DNA from: Amoebidium appalachense
Taxonomy: Eukaryota; Protista; Ichthyosporea
DNA: 64,000 bases
Direction of reading: 5' to 3'
Assembly: GCA_963693365.1 (NCBI GenBank)
Contig: CAVNZM010000017.1
Span: forward strand, 1,465,989-1,529,988
The position numbers and the translations under genes are program-made. The notes beneath the pieces are model-generated. The model worked only from the letters and a program-made list of their open reading frames with translations. It was not told the DNA's origin and did no database searches. Below are positions 2,531-63,139 of this stretch, piece after piece (within the stretch, counting starts at the first letter, position 1; each line of letters opens with the position of its first letter).

Positions 2531-2936
2531 TTCCCCGCCCGCCGCCGGCCCCGCCCATGCGCCTCTGTGTTGCTTTTGAAAGAATGATGTGCTTGGGAGT
2601 TACACACACGTGCTTTTAAAGGTCTCTGGTGGAGGCATAAAGAGCCTCTGGCGATGGGCTCTGCCGCTTTTTTTCATGCATTGTTGCTGTAGTATCTGGT
2701 CTGTGTTCAAATGTTTTCCCCCAAAGGCCGAAGCCGGAATTTCATGTATGTGTGCATGCACACGCACTCACAAACACGCCGCGCGCACGCACACACACAC
2801 ACACACCCATGCACACAACCATATGCACGCTCGGACATACACATGCACCTGCACACTCGGGCACACACACGCACAAGCACACGCACACGCACATGCGCAC
2901 GCGCACGCGCACGCGCGCCCACACGCACGCACGCAC

Positions 2937-3363: not shown

Positions 3364-3556
3364 TCGGGCCATGGCCATGGAGGGGAGCATTATCTAATCA
3401 TCCGTGGGGCCAGCCGGAGGTATCCCCAAACCCCTTCGCAGGTTTACGGGGAAGAATTTCGGTCCCATTATTTCCCCATAAAACCTGCCATGGGATTTGG
3501 GGATACGTCCTTTTGGCCTCCCGGGTGATGAGATAATACCCCCGTTCATGGCTCGA
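3364..3556. repeat. Long imperfect inverted repeat (fold-back hairpin, MITE-like)
   Basis: Nested complementary arms: attatct/agataat, atcatccg/cgggtgat, gtatccccaaa 3420-3430 with tttggggatac 3496-3506, gcaggttt 3438-3445 with aaacctgc 3481-3488, ggggaa/ttcccc. Confidence 0.85.
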
Positions 3557-6484: not shown

Positions 6485-7942
6485 GAGAAGTCCAACGGTA
6501 AACAGAAGCAGAAACAAAAAAAGCCAAAACCGCAAAAGCAAGAACAGGGAAAGAAGCAAGGAATGTAAGTGGCGTTGTGCATGTGGGTGGTGACATGGAT
6601 TCGACGGCTCCCCCCCCCCCTCCCCCCCCCCCCCCCCTTCTTCCCCCCCCTCTCTTCCCCCCTCCTCCCCCCCCCCCCCTTCCCTACCCTCCAAACCTCC
6701 CTCGTTTCTCCCCCTTTTCCTTCCCCTCTCTCTCTGTCTCCCTCCCCTCTTTTTCTCCCGTCCTCCTTCCCCTTCTCCCCTTCCCTCCCTCCCTCCCTCC
6801 CTCCCTCCCTCTCTTAGTCTCTTTCCCTTCCTCTCTTCAAGCTGGCTTCTTGTTCTGTGGGGCATGTGATTGTGCTCGCCTAAACGTTTTCGTGGATTCG
6901 TCCATAGGATGCATGCAAAACGGTTGCTTTAACACAAACATGGGCAGAAATGAAAGGGAGGAATCGTTCTGAACGGTGGATAGAAGTGATGTTTTTAAAG
7001 GGGAATATTGGTTAGAGGTCGTTGGGGAAGGTAGAGAAAGGAATCAGTGCCAATTTTTCCGGGGGGAGAGGAGGGGCAGGTCGGGGAGGGGGGAGGGGGA
7101 GGGGGGGGGGGGGGGGGGGGGGAGGGGACGAGGGGAAAAGAGAGAGAGAGGGAGAGAAGAGGGAGAGATAGTATGACAGAAAGGACTATTTCTTGTCATT
7201 TGTATATTAGCTTTCTCCCATTCTCCGTTGGGTTTAAACGCACGATATACGGTTACTGGTTTCCATACCTCGTTCCTATTGCTTCCGACATTTCCTCCCC
7301 TCGAATCCCCCCCCCCCCTCTCCCCCTTCCCCCCCCCCCCCCTCCCCCTCTCCCCTCGAATCCCCCTTTCCTCCCACTCTTGTCTGAGCCTTGTCTTTGT
7401 TACACGTTCCTCTTATGTTCTACCTATCCTCCCTGTGCATACTCCCCCCCCCCCCCCCCCCCCCCGGCACCCGTTGTCACCCCTTCCCCTGCCCTCCCCC
7501 CTCCCCCCCCCCCCCCCCCCCATACACACACACACACATACGTCCCCCCCTCTCCCCCTCCTTCCCCCCCCCCCCCCCCCCCCTCCCACCGTGTTTGTTC
7601 CGTTTTTTAGATTGTTTGCTATTTTGTCCCTTGGTGCCTCCTCCATATTTCAAACCCACTAATACACACATCCCCTTCCCCCCCCCCCCCCCCCCCCCCC
7701 CCCCCCTTTCCCCCCTCCCTCCCCTCCCTCCCTTCCCTCCATCCCCTCCCTCCCCTTTCAAAGAGTCGAAACCCATCCTTTTATGGAGGCATAGGAACCC
7801 CCCTGATGATGGGCTCTGTTCAAGTGTCTTCTTCCTGCACGGTTAAATTGTTTGATTTTGGGTTTTCCGCTTTTGTGACGTTTTGTTGTTGCTCTTTGTT
7901 GTCTCCTCCATATTTCCAACCCTCTAACGCATACATCACTCC

Positions 7943-8104: not shown

Positions 8105-8316
8105 GTACGTCCCCCCCTTCCCCCCCCCCCCCCCCCCCCCCCCCCCCGCCGCGCGTGCGGAACCCGCCTGATGATGGGCTCTGGTCAAGTGTCTTCTGCC
8201 TGCATGGGTTTCTTCAAATATTTATTATAAACGATCTAGTGGGTTCCACCCACGGCGATGTGGGCCCAAACTCGGTCGAATATTAATCAATTTGACACAC
8301 ACACACACTCCTCCTC

Positions 8317-12506: not shown

Positions 12507-12830
12507 CAGCAGGTCTCTAACCCACTCTGCAGAACGTTTTACGCATTTCTCCCCTCGGAGAACTTGGTCGTTGGTGCGTTTTTGTCTGACATCTAACGAC
12601 TCTGCAGGGTCCCCTGAGACTACTGACACTCTAACATTCCCTCCCCTCTCTTACTTCCCCCCCCCCCCCTCCCCCTTTCCCTCCTCCTTCCCCTCCCATT
12701 TTCTCTGCACACCCAACAGGTCTTAACCAGATCTGCACATCGTTAGTCACAATCTTCTCACATATATGAGAGAATGATCGTATTGGTACGATTTGTCTAA
12801 TATCTGACGATTCTGCAGCATCCCTAAGAC
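12507..12830 (+). repeat. Diverged tandem duplicate of a ~115-bp unit
   Basis: caggtct(c)taacc..tctgca...tttgtct(g/a)a(c/t)atct(a/g)acga(c/t)tctgcag..tccc.t(g/a)agac at 12510-12620 and 12717-12830. Confidence 0.7.
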
Positions 12831-13167: not shown

Positions 13168-13720
13168 TGTGCGGGGTTGCACATACCGGTGTCTACTTTT
13201 CTTCTTACTGTTTTTCTCTCCACACACTTCATCTGTCCACTTCTGCATACCCCCTTTCATAGCTATAGACACACTTCACACATTGCGTTACGCGCACGCA
13301 TGCACACACCGCTCTGTTGGCGACAGCTCCCTTGGAACCCATGCGGCATGTTACCCGCCGGCGTAACATAACTCGGACTATCGGTTTGGCTTTTTTCAAG
13401 CCCAAAGCAATGGGTGATACCATATTTCCGGCTGACATCCGGGGGCATAGCTTTCCGTTCGAAGACGATAAAGTTCCGCCCTAGTAAGCGTGTTACTACC
13501 CTGCGGCGTGGGTCAAATCTCATATTTTCCCCTCTGATTACGAATTCTGTGGCCTTCGGGACTTAATTCTTTTCAGCTGGTGTAGTATGTTAGCCAGGGA
13601 AGTATCGACTTAGGTATCGACGGGGGAGCTTCCTAGAAGCCCCGTCTCCTGAGTTCCTATCTATATTTTTCTTGCTTCTGCTTACTGCTGCAACTTTAAC
13701 CCCCGGCCTTTCCCACTGCC

Positions 13721-13969
13721 CTTGCCTGCATAAGCAACCCTGCTCGTCTCTGATCAAGACGGGTGACCTACTCATGTTCAAGTGAAACAGTATCTGAGTT
13801 GGGTTTCGTTAACGAGGGGAATAGGTCGAAACTCGGGTACTGTGGATGACGTGGGCCCCCCCTGAGGATGGGCTCTGCTTATTATGCATACTCTTTATGT
13901 ATGGCTTGCATTCTGCATCGTGTTATCCGTTTGTTCTTGTGTACTTCGTACTTTTTGACGCATTCAAAA
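13721..13969 (+). mobile_element. Poly(C)-tailed dispersed repeat, subfamily 1, long copy A, containing a structured pseudoknotted RNA-like segment (13728-13887)
   Basis: Homologous to 35423-35704 (-); 3' part near-identical to 57684-57789; multiple helices with compensatory changes between copies; ends ...acgcattcaaaa followed by (C)n. Confidence 0.8.
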
Positions 13970-14072: not shown

Positions 14073-14576
14073 GTAAGCACGCGCTTCACCAGTTCCGATG
14101 CTATCGCTTCAGCTCTCCATCTTCGAGTCCCCTCTACCGAAGAACAATCCGAATACGTATCCCTCCTTGCACTTTTACGAAGAAAAGTCGAATCTGAAAT
14201 TCCCGGCGCTATAGTTACCCCCTACGGATCATGCACCACGGGATTACTGGTGAGGGGGTCTGATCTCGATTGCGATATCAAAATTCCGTCAGGTCGGAAT
14301 GTGGTCGGGTGCATGAATAGGCTGTACCAATCATTCTTAACGGAAAAGCCAAATATAAAGGTATGAAAATATTTGTCCCCCCCCCCCCTCTCCCCCCTTT
14401 TTCCCTGTAATGTCCTCCCCTTCCCTGTCGGGGGAGCCCCCTCCGGGATCTTTTTCGGCCGCCCTTGAAGGATCTCCTTTTGCCCTCTGTTCGCTTCTTT
14501 TCTTCTTTTCTTTAGTCATTTTTAATTTTAGTTTTTCCTTCTAGATATATAATGTTGTTGACGGGGGAAGGTTAGG

Positions 14577-14623
<47 letters not shown>

Positions 14624-14996
14624 ATCTCTCCGTCTCATCCCTCCTCTCGTTTTCGAGACACCATCCCTGTGCCCCCTTTTTTACTTCTAAGTCTCTTTGT
14701 ACCGTTCTCTCATGTGAAGGTTAGCAGAGATTGAAAAGCCTGTGTGTGTATGTTGGCGATGCCCGGAGGTGGGATTGGGTGGGTGGGGGGTGGTGGGGTG
14801 GGGTGGGGAGGGCGAAGACAAACAAAATAAATCATCAACAGCAATTCCCCCCCCCCCCCCCCCCTCCTCCTCCTCCTCCCCCTTTTGTTCGAGAAATTGC
14901 TCTACTGATCTCGTGCAAATCTGTATGTGTTCCACTTTGCACTTTGCTGTGTGTGGGGTGGTGAAAGTACACCTCATGATTTGGGCCGTGTTCTTT

Positions 14997-15029
<33 letters not shown>

Positions 15030-15168
15030 AACCCCTCTCGTGACATGCTGCAAAGAAATATGTATGTTCTCTCTTTTATTGACATCTTTGAAAATGTTCC
15101 ATGGTTGGTTCCCGGTCCTTTCATAAAGAACACAGGCGTCCAGTGTTTAGCATACTAACCAACCAACC

Positions 15169-15204
<36 letters not shown>

Positions 15205-15561
15205 CAAAAAAAAAAAAAAAAAAAACCTTCTTCTACTCCCCCAGCAAGCAGCACACATGAATGCAAGCACACAGATCCCGACACAAGCACGAGCACACAC
15301 ACACACATACACACACACACATACACACACACACTCCCACACCACAGACGGACACACACACACACACACATGTACACACACACATACACACGCACATACA
15401 CACACACACACCCTCCCACCTCCCCCCTGCCCCCCCCCCCCCCCCCCCCCCTTTCACCCCCTTCCGCCCTTCTTCCTCCCAACCCACACACACAAAACTC
15501 ACACAACACTTTCCCACACTCCAAATCCCCTCCCCCCCCCCCCCCCCTCCCCCCCCTTGGT

Positions 15562-15611
<50 letters not shown>

Positions 15612-16192
15612 ACCCCCACCACCACCACCCCCACCACCACCACCACACAGCGCGAGCAAAACCTAACGCACACGCGCATTCCCGTGATCAAACTGTCTGC
15701 CCGTGTGGGGACGCAATACATTGGTGTTGACCTGTGTTTCAACAATGAGGGTGCACTCACATCTTCGAACTTTGTTCGTTACTGTGTGGGTTTACACCCG
15801 AGAGTTAGACCACTCATTATGGCTCTGAAGGTGGGTGATTCCTTTTATGTCGTTCATTTAAACCACCTCCCCCCTTCCCCCCCCTCCCCCGGCCCCAAAT
15901 CTCCCATCAATTTGTTCCCAAGCCCCTTCATTCTTCATCCGTTTGATAACAAACCCTCCCAATATTCTTTTCAGTGAAGCTTCTCCCCCCCCCCCCCCCC
16001 CCCCTGCAACCTTTGCCTTCCGGCAGTTTTTGTGGTTGAGTCGATTCGAAATGGCAGTGTGTTCACGTTATATAACCTCACAGACGACGTTTAGCCCTGG
16101 CCAGAGGATGAAACAGGAGACCTAAAGATCGGCAGGGGAGGCAGAATTGAGTTTGGAAGGGGCCATGCGCTAGTTATGATTGACGCTGTATG

Positions 16193-16256
<64 letters not shown>

Positions 16257-17261
16257 TGTGTGCGTGCGTGTGTGCGTGTGTGCGTGCGTGCGTAGTTGCT
16301 TGGTGCTTTCATTCAAGCCCCTGCTTCCTCCTCTTTCTCTTTTTGGTTTGGGGGGGATACCATGTGTGAGAGCAGGCTAGGTTTCGAAACACCCTCTGGC
16401 TTTTGTCCACATTATGAATCATCATTCCTTTCCTTCAATTTTCTTTTTTTTTTTTTTTTTTTTTTTCCCTTTTCTTTTTTTTTTTCTTTCTTTTTTTTTT
16501 TTTTTTCGAAGAATTGACTCTGGTGGAAAGTATCTCACCAGTAATCATGGCAGCTCTGGGCCAAGGAGCACGACATCAACGACGCCTTCAAAAACACGCT
16601 GAGCAGCTATGCCCTCTTCCTATTGGTCCTCCACTTCATGATCGTGGAGATCGGCGCCCTTCCACCAATCATTGAAATCATCGATGGGTTCGTGGCAGCC
16701 AATCAGATGCCTTTGACGGAAATTGTGATTGTGCCCCCACCAATCGTGAAATCTCAGGTCGTCAGTGACCAATCGAATTCGAAGGAGGGGGAGGAGGGTA
16801 AAGGTGGGCAGGAGGAGGGCAGAGGTTTGAAGCGAGAGGCGGATGGGGGGGAGGGGGAGCCAATTAGCAAGAAACCGAAAATCGAGAAGAAAGAACCCCG
16901 GTTGCCAAATTGCATTTGCCCAAGTGAGCTCGAGGAATCCGGGCCGGCCAGGCTTGCAGGGGCGGCATTTCTGGATGATGGGGTCGGAAACGTACCGGAA
17001 ATTCACGAATTGTTTTACCGGTTTCTTCATTTTTACGCACCCAACGATACATTTAATTTCGCGGTGAACCCAGGAAATGCCGGGAAACGCTCGAAAACCA
17101 AGAGATCCTTCACCGATCCGCATGGATATGCGAAATCGGAGGAGATCGTGATGGAAATTAACGATCCGCTGACAGGAAATAATGCCACGCGGTCGGTGAA
17201 TAAAGCGGGTTTGAGGAGAATCACCGATGCTATAAGGGGCACGAGGGATGCTTTGAAGTGA
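14073..17261 (+). CDS. Non-canonical poly(A) polymerase / terminal nucleotidyltransferase (Cid1/GLD-2/Trf4 superfamily), 5'-partial; exons 14073-14360, 15651-15830, 16554-17261
   Basis: Pol-beta NTase motif [17 protein letters not shown]; RIPVIKL...VDLCFNN (third Asp); [11 protein letters not shown]|[21 protein letters not shown]; PAP-associated [11 protein letters not shown] and [14 protein letters not shown]. All junctions are phase-0 GT-AG. Start exon not found. Confidence 0.9.
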
Positions 17262-18631: not shown

Positions 18632-20443
18632 AGCTGATACCGAGTGTCCCAGGGGAGGCCGAAAAAAAAAAAAAAAAAAAACCGGGAACCCAACTAATTG
18701 ATTTTCTTAGTCTTTATGGTGCTTCGTAGAGTAAGAAAACCCTGATACATATCAACACCCGACATCTATGTACTTGATCATATGATATACCGCTGAGGGG
18801 ATATTCCGAGCAAAAACCCCCATACCTGAGACTGGTCTCTCTTTGCCTCGAGTAAACAGCGTAAACCCCACTCGTATTTTTTATTGCTGGTCTTTCAACA
18901 AGGTGAATGCAGAATGACTTTACAGTAGCTACAGCACCATGGCTGTATATGTGTGCTTCAGGTGACATTCAAATGACACAAATGTTTGCATTCGATATTC
19001 GACGTATGTAACACAGGCACAACTTATTGGCCAGTGATCGCAAACCCCCCCCCCCCCCCCCCAAAAAAAAAAAAAAAAAAAAAAAGCCACCCACCCACCG
19101 CCCAAAACGGACGTACGTCCGCACACGCACACACGCAGGCACGCACACATGTATGCACCCATGCACACCAACAATTTCCCATACCAAATTAGACATACCG
19201 ACCAAAAAACACAAAAAGCATTATACCATCCCCGACAAGCATACCGGTGCGCTCCTCCCCTCCCCCCAAACCACCACCACCTAGTACCGCCACGACCACC
19301 ACACACACAAACGTCCATTCACACACATACACATAAACTTTGTGCCACGCAGGCACGCACACACACGCGCACGCACACACCACACGCACACACATATGCG
19401 CACACACACACAAATGCGCGTGCAGACACGTACACAAAAAAAAAAAAAAATCGGGTTTGTATCACACTAGCAACCCCCTCAGTCCCCACGGTGTGTGTGT
19501 ATGTGTGACACGGCGCACGTGTGGGTGTGTGTGTGTGTGTGCATATGTGTGTTTGGGGTTGAGTTGACAGGAAGGTGAGTGGGTGGTGGGACGGAAGGGG
19601 AGGGAAGCGGGGAGGGGGAGGATAAAGGGATTGATGTGTGGTGGAGTTAGGGGCGCATGAGAAGCAGGGGGGGAAGGGGGAAGACCATGCAGCTGGGGGC
19701 TAGAGAGGGGAAAAACACCCGGGGGGGGGGGGGGGGGAGGGGGGGAGGGGGGAGGGGGATGGCCTTTGAGTTAGAGAGAGATAGAGAGGGGGAGAGAGGG
19801 GGAGGGGAGGGGGAGAGGGAGGGGAGGGGGGGGGGGGGGGGGAGTCTCAGAGTGTGTGACAGAAAGAGGGTGTGTGTGTGTGTGGGGGGGGGGGGGGAGG
19901 GGGGGGGGGGGGGGGGGGGGGGCAATAAAGGGATTATTTGGCGGCGGAGTAAGGGGTGTATGAAGAGCAAGGGGGAGGGAGGGGGGGGGGGGGGGGGGGG
20001 GAGGATAACCACGCAGCCGGGTGGCTAGGGAGGTGGGGAAATCACAACAAAAAAAAGGAGGGGAGGGCGGGGGGAGGAGAGTGAGAGGAAGGGGAGGGGA
20101 AGGGAGGGGGGGGAAGGGAGGGAGGGGATGAGGGTTGGGGCAGTGGGGGGGGGGGGGGGGGGGGGAAGGAGGGACGGAGGGAGAGAGGTGTGTGTTTGTA
20201 TGGGCACATACCTTCCTTTTCCTTCTCTCTCTGTTTGTTTTCACGTATGTAAGTGTGTGTGCGTGTGTGCGCTTTTTTTTTTTTTTTTTTTTTTTTTTTT
20301 GGGGGGGGGGGGGGAAGAGCAGGGAGGGCTCACCTTAAATTCCCAAGTACAACCCCCAAAAATTGTGCTTAGGTATCAGCTGGAAGAGAATAAGTGCCAA
20401 CCTGTGTACCTATGGATGTCTAACACTGACATGTGTTGCGCAG

Positions 20444-21261
20444 GCTGTTGCATCCGAATACGTGGAGGGGGTCCGCCTAATCGCACACCTGAACGCTTTC
20501 TATCGTCGAAACGGAGGGAACAACACCGACACCAAGCTCTATGCCACTGAACTTACCAGGACGCAAATGTGGTCTTTGCTTCGCCAGGCCGCGTGCGCGC
20601 TCGAACGGGTGCACGCGTTCGACGTGGCGCACATGGATCCGAATGTGAGCGATTTCATCTGCACGCAAGACGAGCGAGGAAACACCGTTGTTCGCCTGAT
20701 AGACTTTGGGCTCGCGACGAACAGGTGGAACCCAGAGTTTTTGTGCTCTCACGGCCGCGCGCACCTCATGTCTCCCGAAGAAGTCGAAGCGTGCAAGACG
20801 GGAATCAAGACTATCTCTCGAGACGCTGTTCCGTGCGACATTTCAAGTTCGGGCTTCTGGTTTATAACCTCATGGTGCAAGTGGAAAGGAGGTTTGCGCA
20901 ACCCCCAGACAACTACCACCCGTTTGACACGGAGAAGGGAACATGCCCCAACGCACCCGGTACCAGTGCTGTGTTTCCTTTCCACCCGGAGGATCTAACC
21001 GATTTGATGAATACCCTCCAAGCCAGGTTGGGTGATCTGTCACCAGAGGTTGAGGTGTTGTTTAGGGGTTGCTTTACGCGCGATAGGGTGGAGAGGTTTG
21101 AAATGCTGCAAGTGATAGCCGTCATCGATATGATATATCGCGGAACTGCCGCCCCCTGGCCCTCCCCCGACCGTTCCTCCCCCTTTGGCCAATCAGACGC
21201 TGGCATGCGCACACTGTCAAGCGCCTACTGCGGCTGCGGTACCATCCCAGGCCGCACCTGA
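20444..21261 (+). pseudogene. Protein kinase C-lobe fragment with a frameshift (pseudogene or assembly indel)
   Basis: SEYVEG, ALERVHAFDVAHMD, VRLIDFGLA, MSPEE; CDI continues as KFGLLVYNL...LFRGCFTRDRVERF in another frame (1-nt loss at 20841-20843). Catalytic-loop Asn reads Asp; no N-lobe exons recognised upstream. Confidence 0.75.
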
Positions 21262-25415: not shown

Positions 25416-25882
25416 CCCAGGTCGCTTTTTTTTTATAGTCGTCATGGCGACACACTGGCGTGCAACAGAAAATAAAAAGTTTGCAAAAAGTTACAAGAAA
25501 AGTCACCAACATGCAATTTATCTGACCATCGGGCGCTACAGAAAGACTACAAAGTGAAAAAACAACGTGGGGGATAACTCACCTATGGCTCCGGATGGAT
25601 CCATTTTCTTATAGAACCCTGTTTGCTTAAATTTCGCCTCCGCCATTAGTGCTGCCTCGTGTAATTCTGTGACAATTTCAAAGCCGATGCTTCGCTTAAA
25701 CCCACACATACTGGCTGCTATTACACACCGGCCGGAACCGGAGCCAATGTCTACAAAAACTCCATTCGAACCAATTTTCAACTGTGAAAGTACATCTCGA
25801 AACCCCACGTACTGAATTTCACCGTATGTTAATGCGTCCAGGATAATCTGTGTCGTGTGTCGTGTGTCGTGTGTCGTGTATC

Positions 25883-25962
<80 letters not shown>

Positions 25963-27686: not shown

Positions 27687-28237
27687 TTTCGTCGTCGTGT
27701 TTATCGTTTATATCACAAAAAACATCTAGTAACTTCTCCAAATGCCTTGTGCATAAGTAAGCTCGTTGTTGTAGCGGAGCACGCAGAAAGCTCACGCCGT
27801 CGTATCTTTCCTGTTCATACAGCTCGATGTTTTCATGATTTGTCTCTCACTCGCTCGTAAAGCCAAACAAAGGCCTGTTTCACTGGTGTGTATATATGTA
27901 CATGTGCTTTCCAAGCTGATAGCGCAAACATGGGGTTTATAAGTAGTGACAAGTGTACGGAATTAGATGGCGGGTGAAAGTTTACACTAAGCGGATCTGC
28001 CCTTAGAAAGGAACCCTGGGGGCTAATACCGTTCAACTTTGATATTTTGCATAGCAACATGTTTGAGTCCCCCCGGCTCACTGTTGCGTGATCGACTCTC
28101 AGAGTGACAAAGCGACACATTCAAGAGAGGGGGAGAGAGACACGGACGCACGCACACACCTGGAGAGAGGGAGATAGCCACGCACGCACACACACACAGG
28201 GAGAGGGAGAGAGAGACACGCACACGCAGGCACGAAA

Positions 28238-33669
<5,432 letters not shown>

Positions 33670-35422: not shown

Positions 35423-35704
35423 TTTGAATGCGGAACACAGTACGAAGTACGCATACACGATGAGAAGCATGGTGCAGGACACATGCAAAGGCAACATTCA
35501 AGTATGCGGCATCAGCCATGTGAACAGTATGCGTCATAAGCAGAGCCCATCCTCAGGGATGGCCCAAGTCATCAATTGCGTCTGAGTTTCGACCCCTTAG
35601 CCCGCGTATATACGACGCTCCAAATCAGACAGCAGCATCAACTGAACTTGGGTGGGTCAACCCGTCTTGATCAAAGACGAGAAGGGTTGCTTATGCAAGC
35701 AAGG
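35423..35704 (-). mobile_element. Poly(C)-tailed dispersed repeat, subfamily 1, long copy B with structured segment
   Basis: Reverse complement reads cttgcttgcataagcaaccc..tcgtctttgatcaagacgggttgaccc...ggtcgaaactc...ccctgaggatgggctctgcttat...cttcgtact..cgcattcaaa(C)n, colinear with copy A. Confidence 0.8.
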
Positions 35705-35815
35705 TGAGCAAAACGGTGAAGATGTGTGTGCAAATTAATGCAGTGCAGCGACAAACGCGTATGTGCTTACAGATGCACGACACAGAGCAACCATGCCCGG
35801 TTGCATGGAAGTAAA

Positions 35816-40902: not shown

Positions 40903-41210
40903 GGGGGGGGGGAAGGGAGGAGAAAGAGGACACAACGCGGGGGAGGGGGGGGGAGAGGGGGGAGGAAGGGGGGGGGGGGGGGAGGGGGGAGGGGGGGGGG
41001 GGGGGGTGATGTATGCGTTAGAAATATGGAGGAGACAACAAAGAGCAACAACAAAACGTCACAAAAGTGGGAAATCCAAAATCAAACAATCTAAGCGTGC
41101 AGGCAGAGGACACTTGAACAGAGCCCATCATCAGGGGGGTTCCTATGCCTCCACAAAAGCATGGGTTTTTCACTCTTTAACCTCTCGCGCGTGGTTCCCA
41201 ACCCATACTT

Positions 41211-41254
<44 letters not shown>

Positions 41255-42214: not shown

Positions 42215-42772
42215 AAAAAAACAAAAAAAACAAAACAAAAAAAAAACCACCCACCCACCCACCGTGACACCCACCCTTCCACACCTATAATACCCAATCT
42301 CAATCTATCCATTTTCAGCCATACATGTGTTAACAAACGAAACCCCTACGTTCCAGCTTTCTTAGGAAGAAAACGAAATCAGAACCAGAACTAAAATAAC
42401 AGCCCCCCTACCCTCCCCCCTCCCCCCTCCTCTCCCTCTCCCCCCCCCCCTCCCCCCCCCCCCCCCCCAAAAAAAAAAAAACACCCACACACGCCCACAC
42501 CCACACAATCCAGAGTCCCATTTTTAGGCACCACCCACCTTCAGCACAATCTTGTGAAATTGCAATCGCCCATATCTGTGGAAAAACCCCCACAGGAACA
42601 TCCAATCGAGTCGATTACGGTGATTGCTGATCACAAGCACACGGTCTGTGCGGTAGAGTGGCTCGGGCCCACTGAATACATACTTGACCCCAAATAGAAG
42701 CTCTGTAGAATATTTTATTTTAGTAATTTCTTATACATCTAACAAACAACCCACTTGGGGAGGTTGGTTTGT

Positions 42773-45027: not shown

Positions 45028-46184
45028 TTGGTCAATATGGACGACCCCTCAAAATCTCCCGACCGCTCACTAAGTATGCAACGGTGCGTCGCTGCAGTTT
45101 CGACGAAGCTTGCTGCGACCAACTGCACGGCACCTGACACCAACTGCACGGCACCTGACCCAGGTACTGGGAGGCTCAACACTCACAATTTCAAAACATT
45201 CGCCACCACACTAGGCAGCAGGGAGCTGCAACATCTTTCACAATTGCAATGGCTAGACGACGGTATAACTTGTGAAAATGTCCAGGAATACGCCGATGGT
45301 TTCTGCATTGCTCACTTGTTGTGGTGAAACGTAAATTCGAGCCTCCACCCAGGAAGTACCCACTGCCCATTCACCAAGAGGTTTCGTCCGGCAAGAGTGA
45401 CAAACCCACCTGTCTTCTCACAAGCAGCATGAGGGAAAGATGGGAGGAGGTGCGCTCACTACCCGAGAACTCGAAGGTGTGCGCTAGCTGCAACAAGTAT
45501 TACTACCAACATCTGAGCTCGCCCAGTCGTAAACGCCGTCGCACCACTCCAGACCAGGAGGTCATGTGTGATCATCATCCTCTACGCCAGGTCACCCTTT
45601 TAGCCCAACATCAGACCCCTTCCCTCAACGGTACTACACCTCCAACCACCACCACGGCGACCATTCACATAGGCGGAACTGTAACCTTTAAGCGCGTGGC
45701 TGGTGAGAGAGTTGAAGATGATGTTTATATTCTCTCAACCACAAATGGGGCCGAGTCCGTTGTCGTTACCCACAAAGTGATGACGGACATGGTTGAGGAA
45801 TGCTTGCACCGGTTGGTTTCTGCGTTAGCAGCCGAATTGGCTGCACGGAGGGAAAGAGGGGAGGACACTGACTTCGACCCTGCTGCTTTCCGTGAAATAG
45901 CCGACGCCTGCGCGCCGGGTCTGATGGACATGCTGGAGAACTCCATGAGGGGAAAATCTTTAGACACTCGAGCACATGTTTCCCCACATGAAACACACGG
46001 CAACACGCAGAGTTGTGCAGCGAAGACTGCTGTAAATTTTAAAGCAGTGACTGTTGCCACCATATTGGTAAATGAGTACAACGCACGTTCTAGGCAGTTT
46101 CGGGAAAACGGCACCGTGATTATGAACGGTGGTGGCTTGGCTCAGTTTGCCATTGAAGTTATGGCGAGGCTGGTTTTGCTGTAG
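45028..46184 (+). mobile_element. Intronless, disrupted ORFs resembling the N-terminal part of a DNA-transposon-associated protein (DUF6589-like)
   Basis: Microsatellite-free 1.15-kb block; Cys/His motifs FCIAH and KVCASC; VATILVNEYNARSRQFRENGTVIMNGGGL..AIEVMARL resembles the helical segment of such proteins; frameshift near 45321; truncated by (GA)n. Confidence 0.4.
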
Positions 46185-55520: not shown

Positions 55521-56265
55521 GTTTCAAAAAGGAGCCATTTGGATCAGTTCTCAACGGCCAATGTAATCACTTCAATGGTTTTAAAATAATCATTAAACTC
55601 AAAAAAGAATCTCTTAAAGCACCTAAATGTGTATATCATTAGCTGCGATGTAAGTAATATGTTTTGGTGTGTTCTCAGCCAATCAAAGTTTTCAAAGCTC
55701 GGAGTTTGGAATTTCCGCGTTCCTCATAGTCACAGCCTCGTTTTATCGTGAACCGTTACCAAGTTTCACACAGACTAGGCTACAGACAGAAAACGTGAGC
55801 AATAAGAAAGAGTAGAAAGATTATAAGAAAGAGAACAACATAAGGAGTTTTAATTAGCGAGGCTAGGTCTATTTTTACGCTGTTAAAGGTAATATGCTGC
55901 TGCGTTTTTCAGCTTGGGTTGGCTTCTGGTGTTGTTGGACTTTATGGTTGTAGGGATTCCCAAAAACCGTATGGAGTCTTACCTTTCTTTCTTTATTTTA
56001 TCAATTTTATAGCTTTATTCAAGAGCTTTTTTCTATTGTTGCTTTAGCTCTATGCTTTAAGCATGTAAATGCTACATTCTGCCCTATGCCGAAAGGTCTG
56101 CAAAGCAGGCACCCAGACACTGTCAAACCCCCTTCTTCCACTTTTTCACTGCTGAGGCTACGGTGTTACTTCTCTCTTCCATTCCCTTCTAAACGAGCCA
56201 GTACATACAACAGTTACTAACCTATTCCTTTCTTAAACCAGGAAATTACATAGCAAACCGCCAGC

Positions 56266-63139
<6,874 letters not shown>

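Follow-up and report, generated by a model that had tools for sequence, protein, structure and literature searches.

A putative split-core hammerhead ribozyme in dispersed copies of a probable Penelope-like retroelement

The DNA analysed here (the window, 64,000 nucleotides in all) is microsatellite-rich and carries intron-split host genes identified by their Pfam matches (Table 1). For a 42-residue exon of UCH-L5 the best matches, drawn from only 211 candidates, are fungal (80-83%), plant and unnamed sequences, and the named entries among the 120 matches listed include no animal. It also contains eight full or partial copies of a repeat in two families, where the first-pass annotation had counted only two copies. 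Self-comparison of the window and a motif search gave elements A and B, two A-type 3' fragments and four family-2 copies. Seven of the eight begin inside the element and are therefore 5'-truncated. Each of the six copies with a located 3' end finishes at a run of at least seven C, without poly(A) (background 0.064), and a run of this length also occurs on the 5' side of five of the eight, with ends set by eye in both counts. Positions 13177-13960 are covered by contigs from all four public runs. In run X3, 10,320 contigs lie over element A, and their summed depth, which is not equivalent to copy number, increases toward the 3' end, a pattern that fits a repeated, 5'-truncated retroelement.

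Element A has no coding match in Pfam. A 71-codon frame at 13269-13484 was considered as the end of a reverse transcriptase (RT) and rejected, having no Pfam match. The Pfam scan, which took in 145 of the 287 listed frames within the window, found neither RT nor GIY-YIG, and none of the eight copies in the window is a pLTR tandem or inverted insertion.

Table 1. Coordinates of repeat copies, RNA segments and host genes in the window.
Feature	Position	Strand	Basis or remark
Decayed family-2-like copy; core mutated, GAAA block lost	2560..2675	+	limits by eye
Family-2 copy, truncated just before block G; GAGUC-GAAA and CUGAUGA intact	7760..7940	+	
Family-2 fragment with CUGAUGA; 3' end not located	8149..8210	+	
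Element A, about 790 nt, 3' end at C-run	13177..13968	+	true 5' end uncertain, abuts TG repeat
Copy A of the RNA	13720-13895	+	aligns with copy B
Closing helix P0, 5' strands (ATAAGCA, CCC)	13730-36, 13738-40	+	pairing, RNAalifold; identical in A and B
Inserted hairpin just 5' of G10.1; its TGATCA loop is self-complementary	13743..13763	+	pairing, RNAalifold
Stem II 5' strand, displaced upstream; G10.1 = 13765	13765..13769	+	pairs with 13823-27
Helix 'I' 5' strand (joins stems I and II) and kink-turn C-stem	13771..13780	+	pairs with 13847-55
Kink-turn bulged strand (3-nt bulge, then GA); partner 13844-46	13781..13786	+	copies A and B
Block S: stem III 5' strand, U16.1, U17, stem I 5' strand	13787..13803	+	
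Linker from stem I to stem II, with palindromic hairpin	13804..13822	+	palindromes also in copy B and the 41 kb copy
Block G: stem II 3' strand, G12-A13-A14-A15.1 (13828-31), stem III 3' strand	13823..13843	+	
Kink-turn non-bulged strand and helix 'I' 3' strand	13844..13855	+	pairing
Block C, first half: stem I 3' strand 13859-61, CUGAGGA 13862-68, extra U	13859..13869	+	motif search
Closing helix P0, 3' strands	13870..13882	+	GGGCUC there could pair as a weaker stem II
Nucleotidyltransferase (weak match)	14073-15875	+	Pfam; element A just upstream
DOT1	25539-25883	-	Pfam
p24	28217-32829	+	Pfam
A-type 3' tail fragment, p24 gene region	32559..32617	+	
Element B, 5'-truncated, flanked by two C-runs	35423..35815	-	self-comparison
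Copy B of the RNA	35704-35523	-	aligns with copy A
Family-2 copy, truncated at stem III; U16.1 41201, C3 41134; GAAA block mutated	41007..41211	-	
Acyltransferase	42527-42730	-	Pfam
UCH-L5	47362-55181	-	Pfam
Ras-family (Rap-like) GTPase	56254-62100	+	Pfam
A-type 3' fragment, truncated inside CUGAGGA, in Ras-family gene intron	57687..57790	+	

Copies A and B of the RNA are 79% identical over 182 nt (E 2e-27 in the self-comparison of the window). The helices that the first-pass annotation had proposed for them were all found in place: a closing stem (13730-36/13876-82 in copy A), a hairpin whose loop contains TGATCA (13743-49/13757-63), a ctcatgt-type helix (13771-77/13849-55), a long helix, an inner palindrome (10 nt in copy A and in copy B) and a crossing helix that makes a pseudoknot (13765-69/13823-27). 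The long helix needs one amendment. It pairs at 13787-99/13831-43, and the last pair assigned to it, U13800-A13830, corresponds to hammerhead positions 17 and 14, which would not be paired in the active fold. Two pairings had been overlooked, a second crossing helix, here stem I (13801-03/13859-61; GGG/CCC in copy A, GGA/UCC in copy B), and three further base pairs that lengthen the closing stem (13738-40/13870-72).

Among 45 homologous pairs in the two copies, 33 are identical, three are changed on one side, six are changed on both sides and three are unpaired in one copy. Nine of the 11 changed pairs remain paired, against 3.6 expected, with a P of 2e-4 that is optimistic because the registers were chosen by the analyst, by hand and with one bulge permitted in the long helix of copy B. 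RNAalifold, run unprompted on the two copies, recovered the closing stem, the hairpin, the 7-bp helix and, for the most part, the long helix. Folded singly, the two sequences do not stand out (z of -1.0 for copy A and -2.1 for copy B), as is expected because two of the helices are pseudoknots. A structure test on six rows gave 92.5% paired positions, with 9 of 47 pairs changed on both sides (1/500 shuffles; slid controls 37-46%); it is given little weight, as the rows are mostly partial, the structure was taken from copy A, and two of the nine double changes come from a doubtfully aligned decayed copy. The closing helix, the hairpin and GGGCUCUG are invariant in sequence between the copies and do not covary, which for P0 within the window follows from its being identical in A and B.

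An Rfam scan, which the first-pass annotation had proposed, assigned neither copy to a family at threshold. Over the whole window there were 114 matches at E up to 10, none of them on copies A or B and none at the gathering score. In a narrow scan the best match for copy A was Hammerhead_1 (14.2 bits against a threshold of 34, E 1.9), and this sub-threshold match aligns GACC/GGUC-GAAAC of copy A as stem II; the narrow scan of copy B gave no hammerhead match.

We take the hammerhead position numbers to apply to copy A as given here, and blocks S, G and C to be those of PMC10085705. The strand C3-U4-G5-A6-N7-G8-A9 is present beside stem I, as CUGAGGA at 13862-68 and 35556-50 and as CUGAUGA in three family-2 copies. 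G12-A13-A14-A15.1 and G10.1-C11.1 are present in copies A and B, in the 7760 copy and in a consensus of family-2 contig loose ends, and are mutated in the 41 kb copy. The U16.1-H17 site is GUU in copy A and family 2 and UUU in copy B, which also has a U.C mismatch at 16.2/15.2, beside the predicted site. Block S of copy A divides into the stem III 5' strand (13787-99, with U16.1 at 13799), U17 at 13800 and the stem I 5' strand (13801-03), and the core of copy B (RNA 35694-35536, minus strand) has G10.1 at 35658, U16.1 at 35623, G12 at 35590 and C3 at 35556. Stems I, II and III occur with compensatory change, stem I being only 3 bp long; in stem II a U-A pair in copy A becomes C-G in copy B. 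Because all core positions and three stems can be assigned, a ribozyme reading is much stronger than the first-pass annotation had judged. CUGAUCA at 13750 was considered as a second core strand and rejected, since G8 is missing and copy B has UUGAUCA. Contigs of runs X3, X4 and X20 have no variant of at least 5% at the core positions. The changes 13769 T>C and 13823 A>G have similar depths (12,918 and 11,428 in X3; 1,419 and 1,434 in X20) and are probably one subfamily change.

The strands run, 5' to 3', in the order stem II 5' strand with helix I', site, GAAA, helix I, CUGANGA-U, and stems I and II form as pseudoknots, each pairing the long arm's loop with the molecule's base. The supported fold places A9 (13868) 103 nt downstream of G10.1 (13765), and the two are joined neither directly nor by 1-2 nt; A9 is within 1-2 nt of stem II only in a weaker, contiguous rival fold. 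The inserted hairpin starts two nucleotides from the closing helix in copy A. For stem II the upstream strand is more stable than the alternative (-8.2/-10.0 vs -3.8/-7.0 kcal/mol), and helix I is likewise more stable than its alternative (-8.5/-11.7 vs -5.2/-4.0 kcal/mol). A descriptor of the split layout matches only copies A and B in the window, with one locus in 300 shuffled windows and none in 50 unrelated loci. On the sequence evidence, we consider it very likely that this RNA is, as a structural assignment, a hammerhead core split between A9 and G10.1 with a non-circular strand order. A conserved, pseudoknotted RNA on a probable retroelement, as the first-pass annotation had it, is upheld. 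That annotation was also right that no canonical topology applies and that hammerhead core strands are present, but this is not an unrelated new fold.

Family 2 keeps the layout with other letters, and stem III of the 41 kb copy pairs at 11 of 11 positions. This copy is truncated before the upstream stem II strand, for which an expectation was fixed beforehand: GACUC, then the complement of GCAUAGG. Loose ends of contigs reaching past 41211 in run X1 read GACUC (vs GAGUC) and CCUAUUGC (vs GCAUAGG), with 34 contigs and an agreement of 0.75. The loose-end consensus of run X3 has GCCUC, one letter off GACUC (30 contigs, agreement 0.71), and the decayed 2.6 kb copy likewise reads GCCUC. Few contigs extend to this strand, the median loose length being 22 in X3 and 13 in X1, and the single X4 contig ends earlier; run X12 has no contig over the family-2 stretch, which is no proof of absence. 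The GAAA block is intact in the loose-end consensus, though mutated in the 41 kb copy.

Copies A and B share a loop that separates helix I from stem III and contains three C-stem positions that are paired, a bulge of 3 nt and tandem GA/GA; position 3b.3n is A.G in copy A and U.U in copy B. By reading of the sequence, family 2 has the same signature. A 3-nt bulge, tandem G.A/A.G and a paired C-stem are the criteria for a kink-turn in the portions of PMC5435971 and PMC4382518 available to us. With a kink-turn at this point the arm would fold back sharply, and its loop (stem I 5' strand, stem II 3' strand) could come into contact with the base (stem II 5' strand, stem I 3' strand, CUGANGA) of the same molecule.

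Hammerheads of type SGC, which have a non-circular order, were shown to cleave (Eckert 2023, PMC10085705; here and below, the parts of that paper available to us). Eckert et al. counted six possible hammerhead permutations, assuming three blocks that cannot be interrupted, and by their account the insertions beside CUGAnGA in known hammerheads amount to no more than 1-2 nt. The SGC rows consist of helix I, stem I', CUGAKGA-U-GACCN, (A)A and helix I', their last part being CUGAKGA-U followed by the 5' strand of stem II, an A or two and the strand that pairs with helix 'I'; the search patterns contain the U after CUGAUGA, and a direct link is possible between the far end of helix I and that of stem III. 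The RNA described here resembles type SGC (HRIMA-1 and variants) in the order site-GAAA-CUGANGA, the extra U after A9, helix 'I' and the two pseudoknots. One SGC row shares its exact helix-I letters with copy B, and the SGC alignment also includes GUU sites, as in copy A and family 2.

In type SGC, however, block C is whole and the stem II 5' strand and helix I' lie at the 3' end, whereas in copies A and B and family 2 both lie upstream of block S. In copy A the segment U, GACCY, A, helix I' sits at the front (13764-77) and not after CUGANGA. Because SGC rows end in GACCN-A-helix I', this upstream segment is equivalent to the 3' end of SGC relocated to the front, and the displaced segment together with the S-G-C order makes the RNA an SGC knot opened between A9 and G10.1. 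Two helices are predicted to bridge A9 and G10.1 here, and type SGC has no such bridge. Since block C is not contiguous, we regard the RNA as a variant of type SGC and not as a member, even though the two would work alike. Compared with the SGC descriptor, stem I is 3 bp instead of 4-7 bp, the linker that joins stem I to stem II has about 19-24 nt with a hairpin (19 in copy A) instead of 0-8 nt, and N7 is G in copies A and B where the descriptor has CUGAUGA. The kink-turn signature is a further listed difference, as is the source, eukaryotic genomic DNA here and metatranscriptomes for SGC.

Other hammerheads are more distant in layout. Types I, II and III (Rfam clan CL00010) are circularly permuted and have no pseudoknot, and the S-G-C order of this RNA falls outside them. 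Type CSG, for which the available text of PMC10085705 gives two sequences, permutes the same knotted order circularly and, unlike the present RNA, has a contiguous block C. The type-I and minimal hammerheads of Penelope-like elements (PLEs) and retrozymes share with it, as far as the accessible parts of the sources go, a location in a retroelement's terminal region, a nucleotide separating 9 from 10.1 (as is usual for hammerheads of PLEs and of type SGC; PMC4209133, PMC10085705), the G10.1-C11.1 pair and palindromic loops (PMC4209133, 10.64898/2026.07.22.740005). Those hammerheads are circular permutations with a weak stem III and occur in tandem, in contrast to the non-circular order, the stem III of 11-13 bp and the dispersed copies found here. 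In the hammerhead of CChMVd a single extra A at this step lowers the rate moderately, according to the part of PMC1636495 that we consulted; an accelerating effect of an additional base at position 10 found no support there.

The literature searched (mostly open main texts and few supplements) describes no split-core hammerhead and no Naiad ribozyme structure, and the term 'type-SGC' occurs in a single paper of that literature (PMC10085705). A viral contig collection had no match to a two-block pattern and 46 to a 16-mer, which is the chance expectation. A metagenome contig collection likewise had no match, and a looser pattern gave four, all without the split layout.

Naiad and most Chlamys elements were reported to be without canonical hammerheads, and this absence was used to suggest that the ribozyme is dispensable; ten Naiads were flagged HHR_core and eight HHR_half_core, with no structure proposed in the text available to us (Craig et al. 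2021, PMC8557442). In the displayed passages of its supplement, read by eye, five Naiad consensus tails show the split layout, and in each of them stems I-III and helix I pair fully. Three of the five immediately precede >Naiad_Ovul, >Naiad_Omin and >Naiad-1_Movir, and the other two are found near parts 12 and 19; the one preceding >Naiad-1_Movir repeats the junction of copy A (closing helix, UG, hairpin, U, G10.1). A further three tails, one ahead of >Naiad_Hcon and the others near parts 15 and 16, read by eye as contiguous type CSG with helix I, a likely evolutionary source of the split form. This reading is no census, as File S1 lists 54 Naiads, the passages viewed were those from a motif search and some tails are ambiguous; the Chlamys passages viewed contain no split layout. 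As observations apart, the type-CSG Naiad tails add to a type for which Eckert et al. had only two sequences, from metagenomes (PMC10085705, in part); the records before >Naiad_Ovul and >Naiad_Omin (File S5, displayed passages) carry a tandem-GA kink-turn signature with the bulge on the opposite strand from that in the window; and the displayed record before >Chlamys-1_dArm (File S6) has a GACC/GGUC hairpin followed by GAAAC, with no CUGANGA in view.

The element in the window resembles these Naiads in its split layout, 5' truncation, microsatellite targeting and near-3'-end position of the RNA. In the accessible text of PMC8557442, Chlamys elements often insert in (C)n and (CA)n, Naiads insert in (TA)n, and 5' truncation is a Chlamys trait. 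Unlike the Naiads, which prefer (TA)n, the element described here is found at (C)n, like Chlamys; it combines a Naiad-type RNA with Chlamys-type targeting and is known here without RT or endonuclease. It is probably a Naiad/Chlamys-type Penelope-like retroelement.

We propose, with a probability of roughly 0.6, that the RNA folds as a working split-core hammerhead, likely cutting after U13800 in transcripts of what is likely a Naiad/Chlamys-type PLE. The core would be complete only once its last strand (13859-82) had been transcribed. The arm would then bend at the kink-turn, allowing stems I and II to form as pseudoknots, while the closing helix and the hairpin would stack and hold A9-U next to U-G10.1. 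A two-helix domain would in this way replace the single bulged nucleotide of other hammerheads, giving five helices round the core. Since known insertions beside CUGAnGA are at most 1-2 nt, activity with a whole domain at that place is a prediction. From the predicted cut, 3' of U13800, to the 3' end of the element there are 168 nt in copy A, 199 nt in copy B and 193 nt in the 41 kb copy.

By analogy with other PLEs, for which the available part of PMC4209133 gives a model of hammerheads processing precursors to unit-length or circular templates, such cuts might turn tandem or read-through precursors into unit-length, possibly circular RNA, which the RT of the element would copy into C-runs. 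The predicted cut site coincides with neither the start nor the end of any of the eight copies, and contig depth has no step there, which argues against a simple role in making template ends. What the sequences themselves show is the letters, their order, their pairing and covariation and the repeat anatomy; the tertiary fold, the catalysis and the role are inferred. The weak points of the split fold are the 3-bp stem I, the mismatch beside the site in copy B, the invariant closing helix and the moderate rate loss reported for one extra base at this step in CChMVd (PMC1636495).

The same fold might be non-catalytic, a hammerhead-derived scaffold serving as a recognition or packaging signal for the RT of the element. 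The broken core strand, the short stem I, the mismatch beside the site in copy B and the failure of the cut site to match any copy end would all suit such a signal, as would the closing helix, hairpin and GGGCUCUG, which are invariant rather than covarying, as in protein sites. We nevertheless think it unlikely, because the catalytic letters are all kept in three subfamilies and in five Naiad tails that share little helix sequence, and mere binding has no obvious need of G5, G8, G12 and a UH site. Less probable still is a contiguous type-SGC active form, in which the GG(G)CUC after CUGANGA-U would serve as stem II, beside a short alternative helix I, and the upstream strands would act as an off-state switch. 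A descriptor with a 2-nt insertion does match A and B (one locus in 100 shuffles), the invariant GGGCUC is able to pair with the 3' strand of stem II in all three subfamilies, and the alternative helix changes consistently, from GGGC/GCUU in A and B to GAAC/GUUC in family 2. Yet both alternative helices are the weaker ones and compete with the closing helix at -11.7/-13.7 kcal/mol, the upstream strand covaries with its partner, and in the displayed split-layout Naiad tails the strand after CUGANGA, read by eye, cannot form stem II.

Alternatively, the split core might work chiefly between molecules, in trans or as a dimer, with palindromic loops helping an arm loop to dock on the base of a second molecule or tandem copy. 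Self-complementary loops are indeed present (TGATCA in the hairpin of A and B; 10 nt in the linker of A and B and 6 nt in that of the 41 kb copy), and PLE hammerheads are often dimeric according to the part of PMC4209133 available. Here, however, stem III is long and stable, which removes the usual reason for dimers; the kink-turn signature and the short linkers of type SGC (PMC10085705, in part) permit a monomer; and the Naiad tails viewed, read by eye in the displayed passages, have no linker hairpin. We judge this mode improbable, on a par with the contiguous form. An HDV-like or other non-hammerhead ribozyme is barely conceivable. The first-pass annotation had been led to HDV by GGCUAA, and there are two crossing helices, but GGCUAA occurs in copy B only and is absent from copy A and family 2, Rfam has no HDV, twister, pistol or hatchet match at E up to 10, and the hammerhead assignment covers every conserved block.

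Beyond the split-core hammerhead itself, a broader account seems to us evenly balanced between right and wrong. The core would be rebuilt by a helical junction, folded by the kink-turn and gated by its last strand, by a partner RNA or by a host kink-turn protein; it would be the missing Naiad ribozyme, derived from CSG or SGC forms that persist in other Naiads. Given a (C)n-targeting carrier and a host that is perhaps not an animal, its origin may lie at the base of the Naiad/Chlamys clade.

Specialists in ribozymes would find a split catalytic core surprising. The layout breaks the assumption of Eckert et al. that the blocks are uninterrupted, and descriptors built on it miss such RNAs. It would explain why Naiads were thought to lack this ribozyme, and it makes the puzzle of the missing Naiad and Chlamys hammerheads testable. 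If the RNA cleaves, the A9/G10.1 step tolerates a whole inserted domain and becomes a new place at which to gate or engineer hammerheads. Non-circular hammerheads are known almost only from metatranscriptomes, and here they lie in dispersed repeats of a eukaryotic genome, where the window contributes three divergent subfamilies and a (C)n-targeting carrier.

The window has several other features. An imperfect, MITE-like 180-nt palindrome (3374-3552) is 74% self-complementary and consists of non-repetitive sequence. Open frames include one of 302 codons outside simple repeats (45276-46184, plus strand) that has no Pfam match, others of 238 codons (16545-17261, plus strand) and 236 codons (20551-21261, plus strand), and an intron-free frame of 219 codons (20339-20998, plus strand) that matches a protein kinase weakly (E 6e-6, short of the cut-off). 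Part of a Ras-family exon occurs in three copies that are 85-92% alike, with simple repeats between them (59720-59787, 59892-59955 and 60065-60132). The stretches 12575-12620 and 12790-12830 are similar by eye and both end at a C-run, and they possibly represent another small repeat family.
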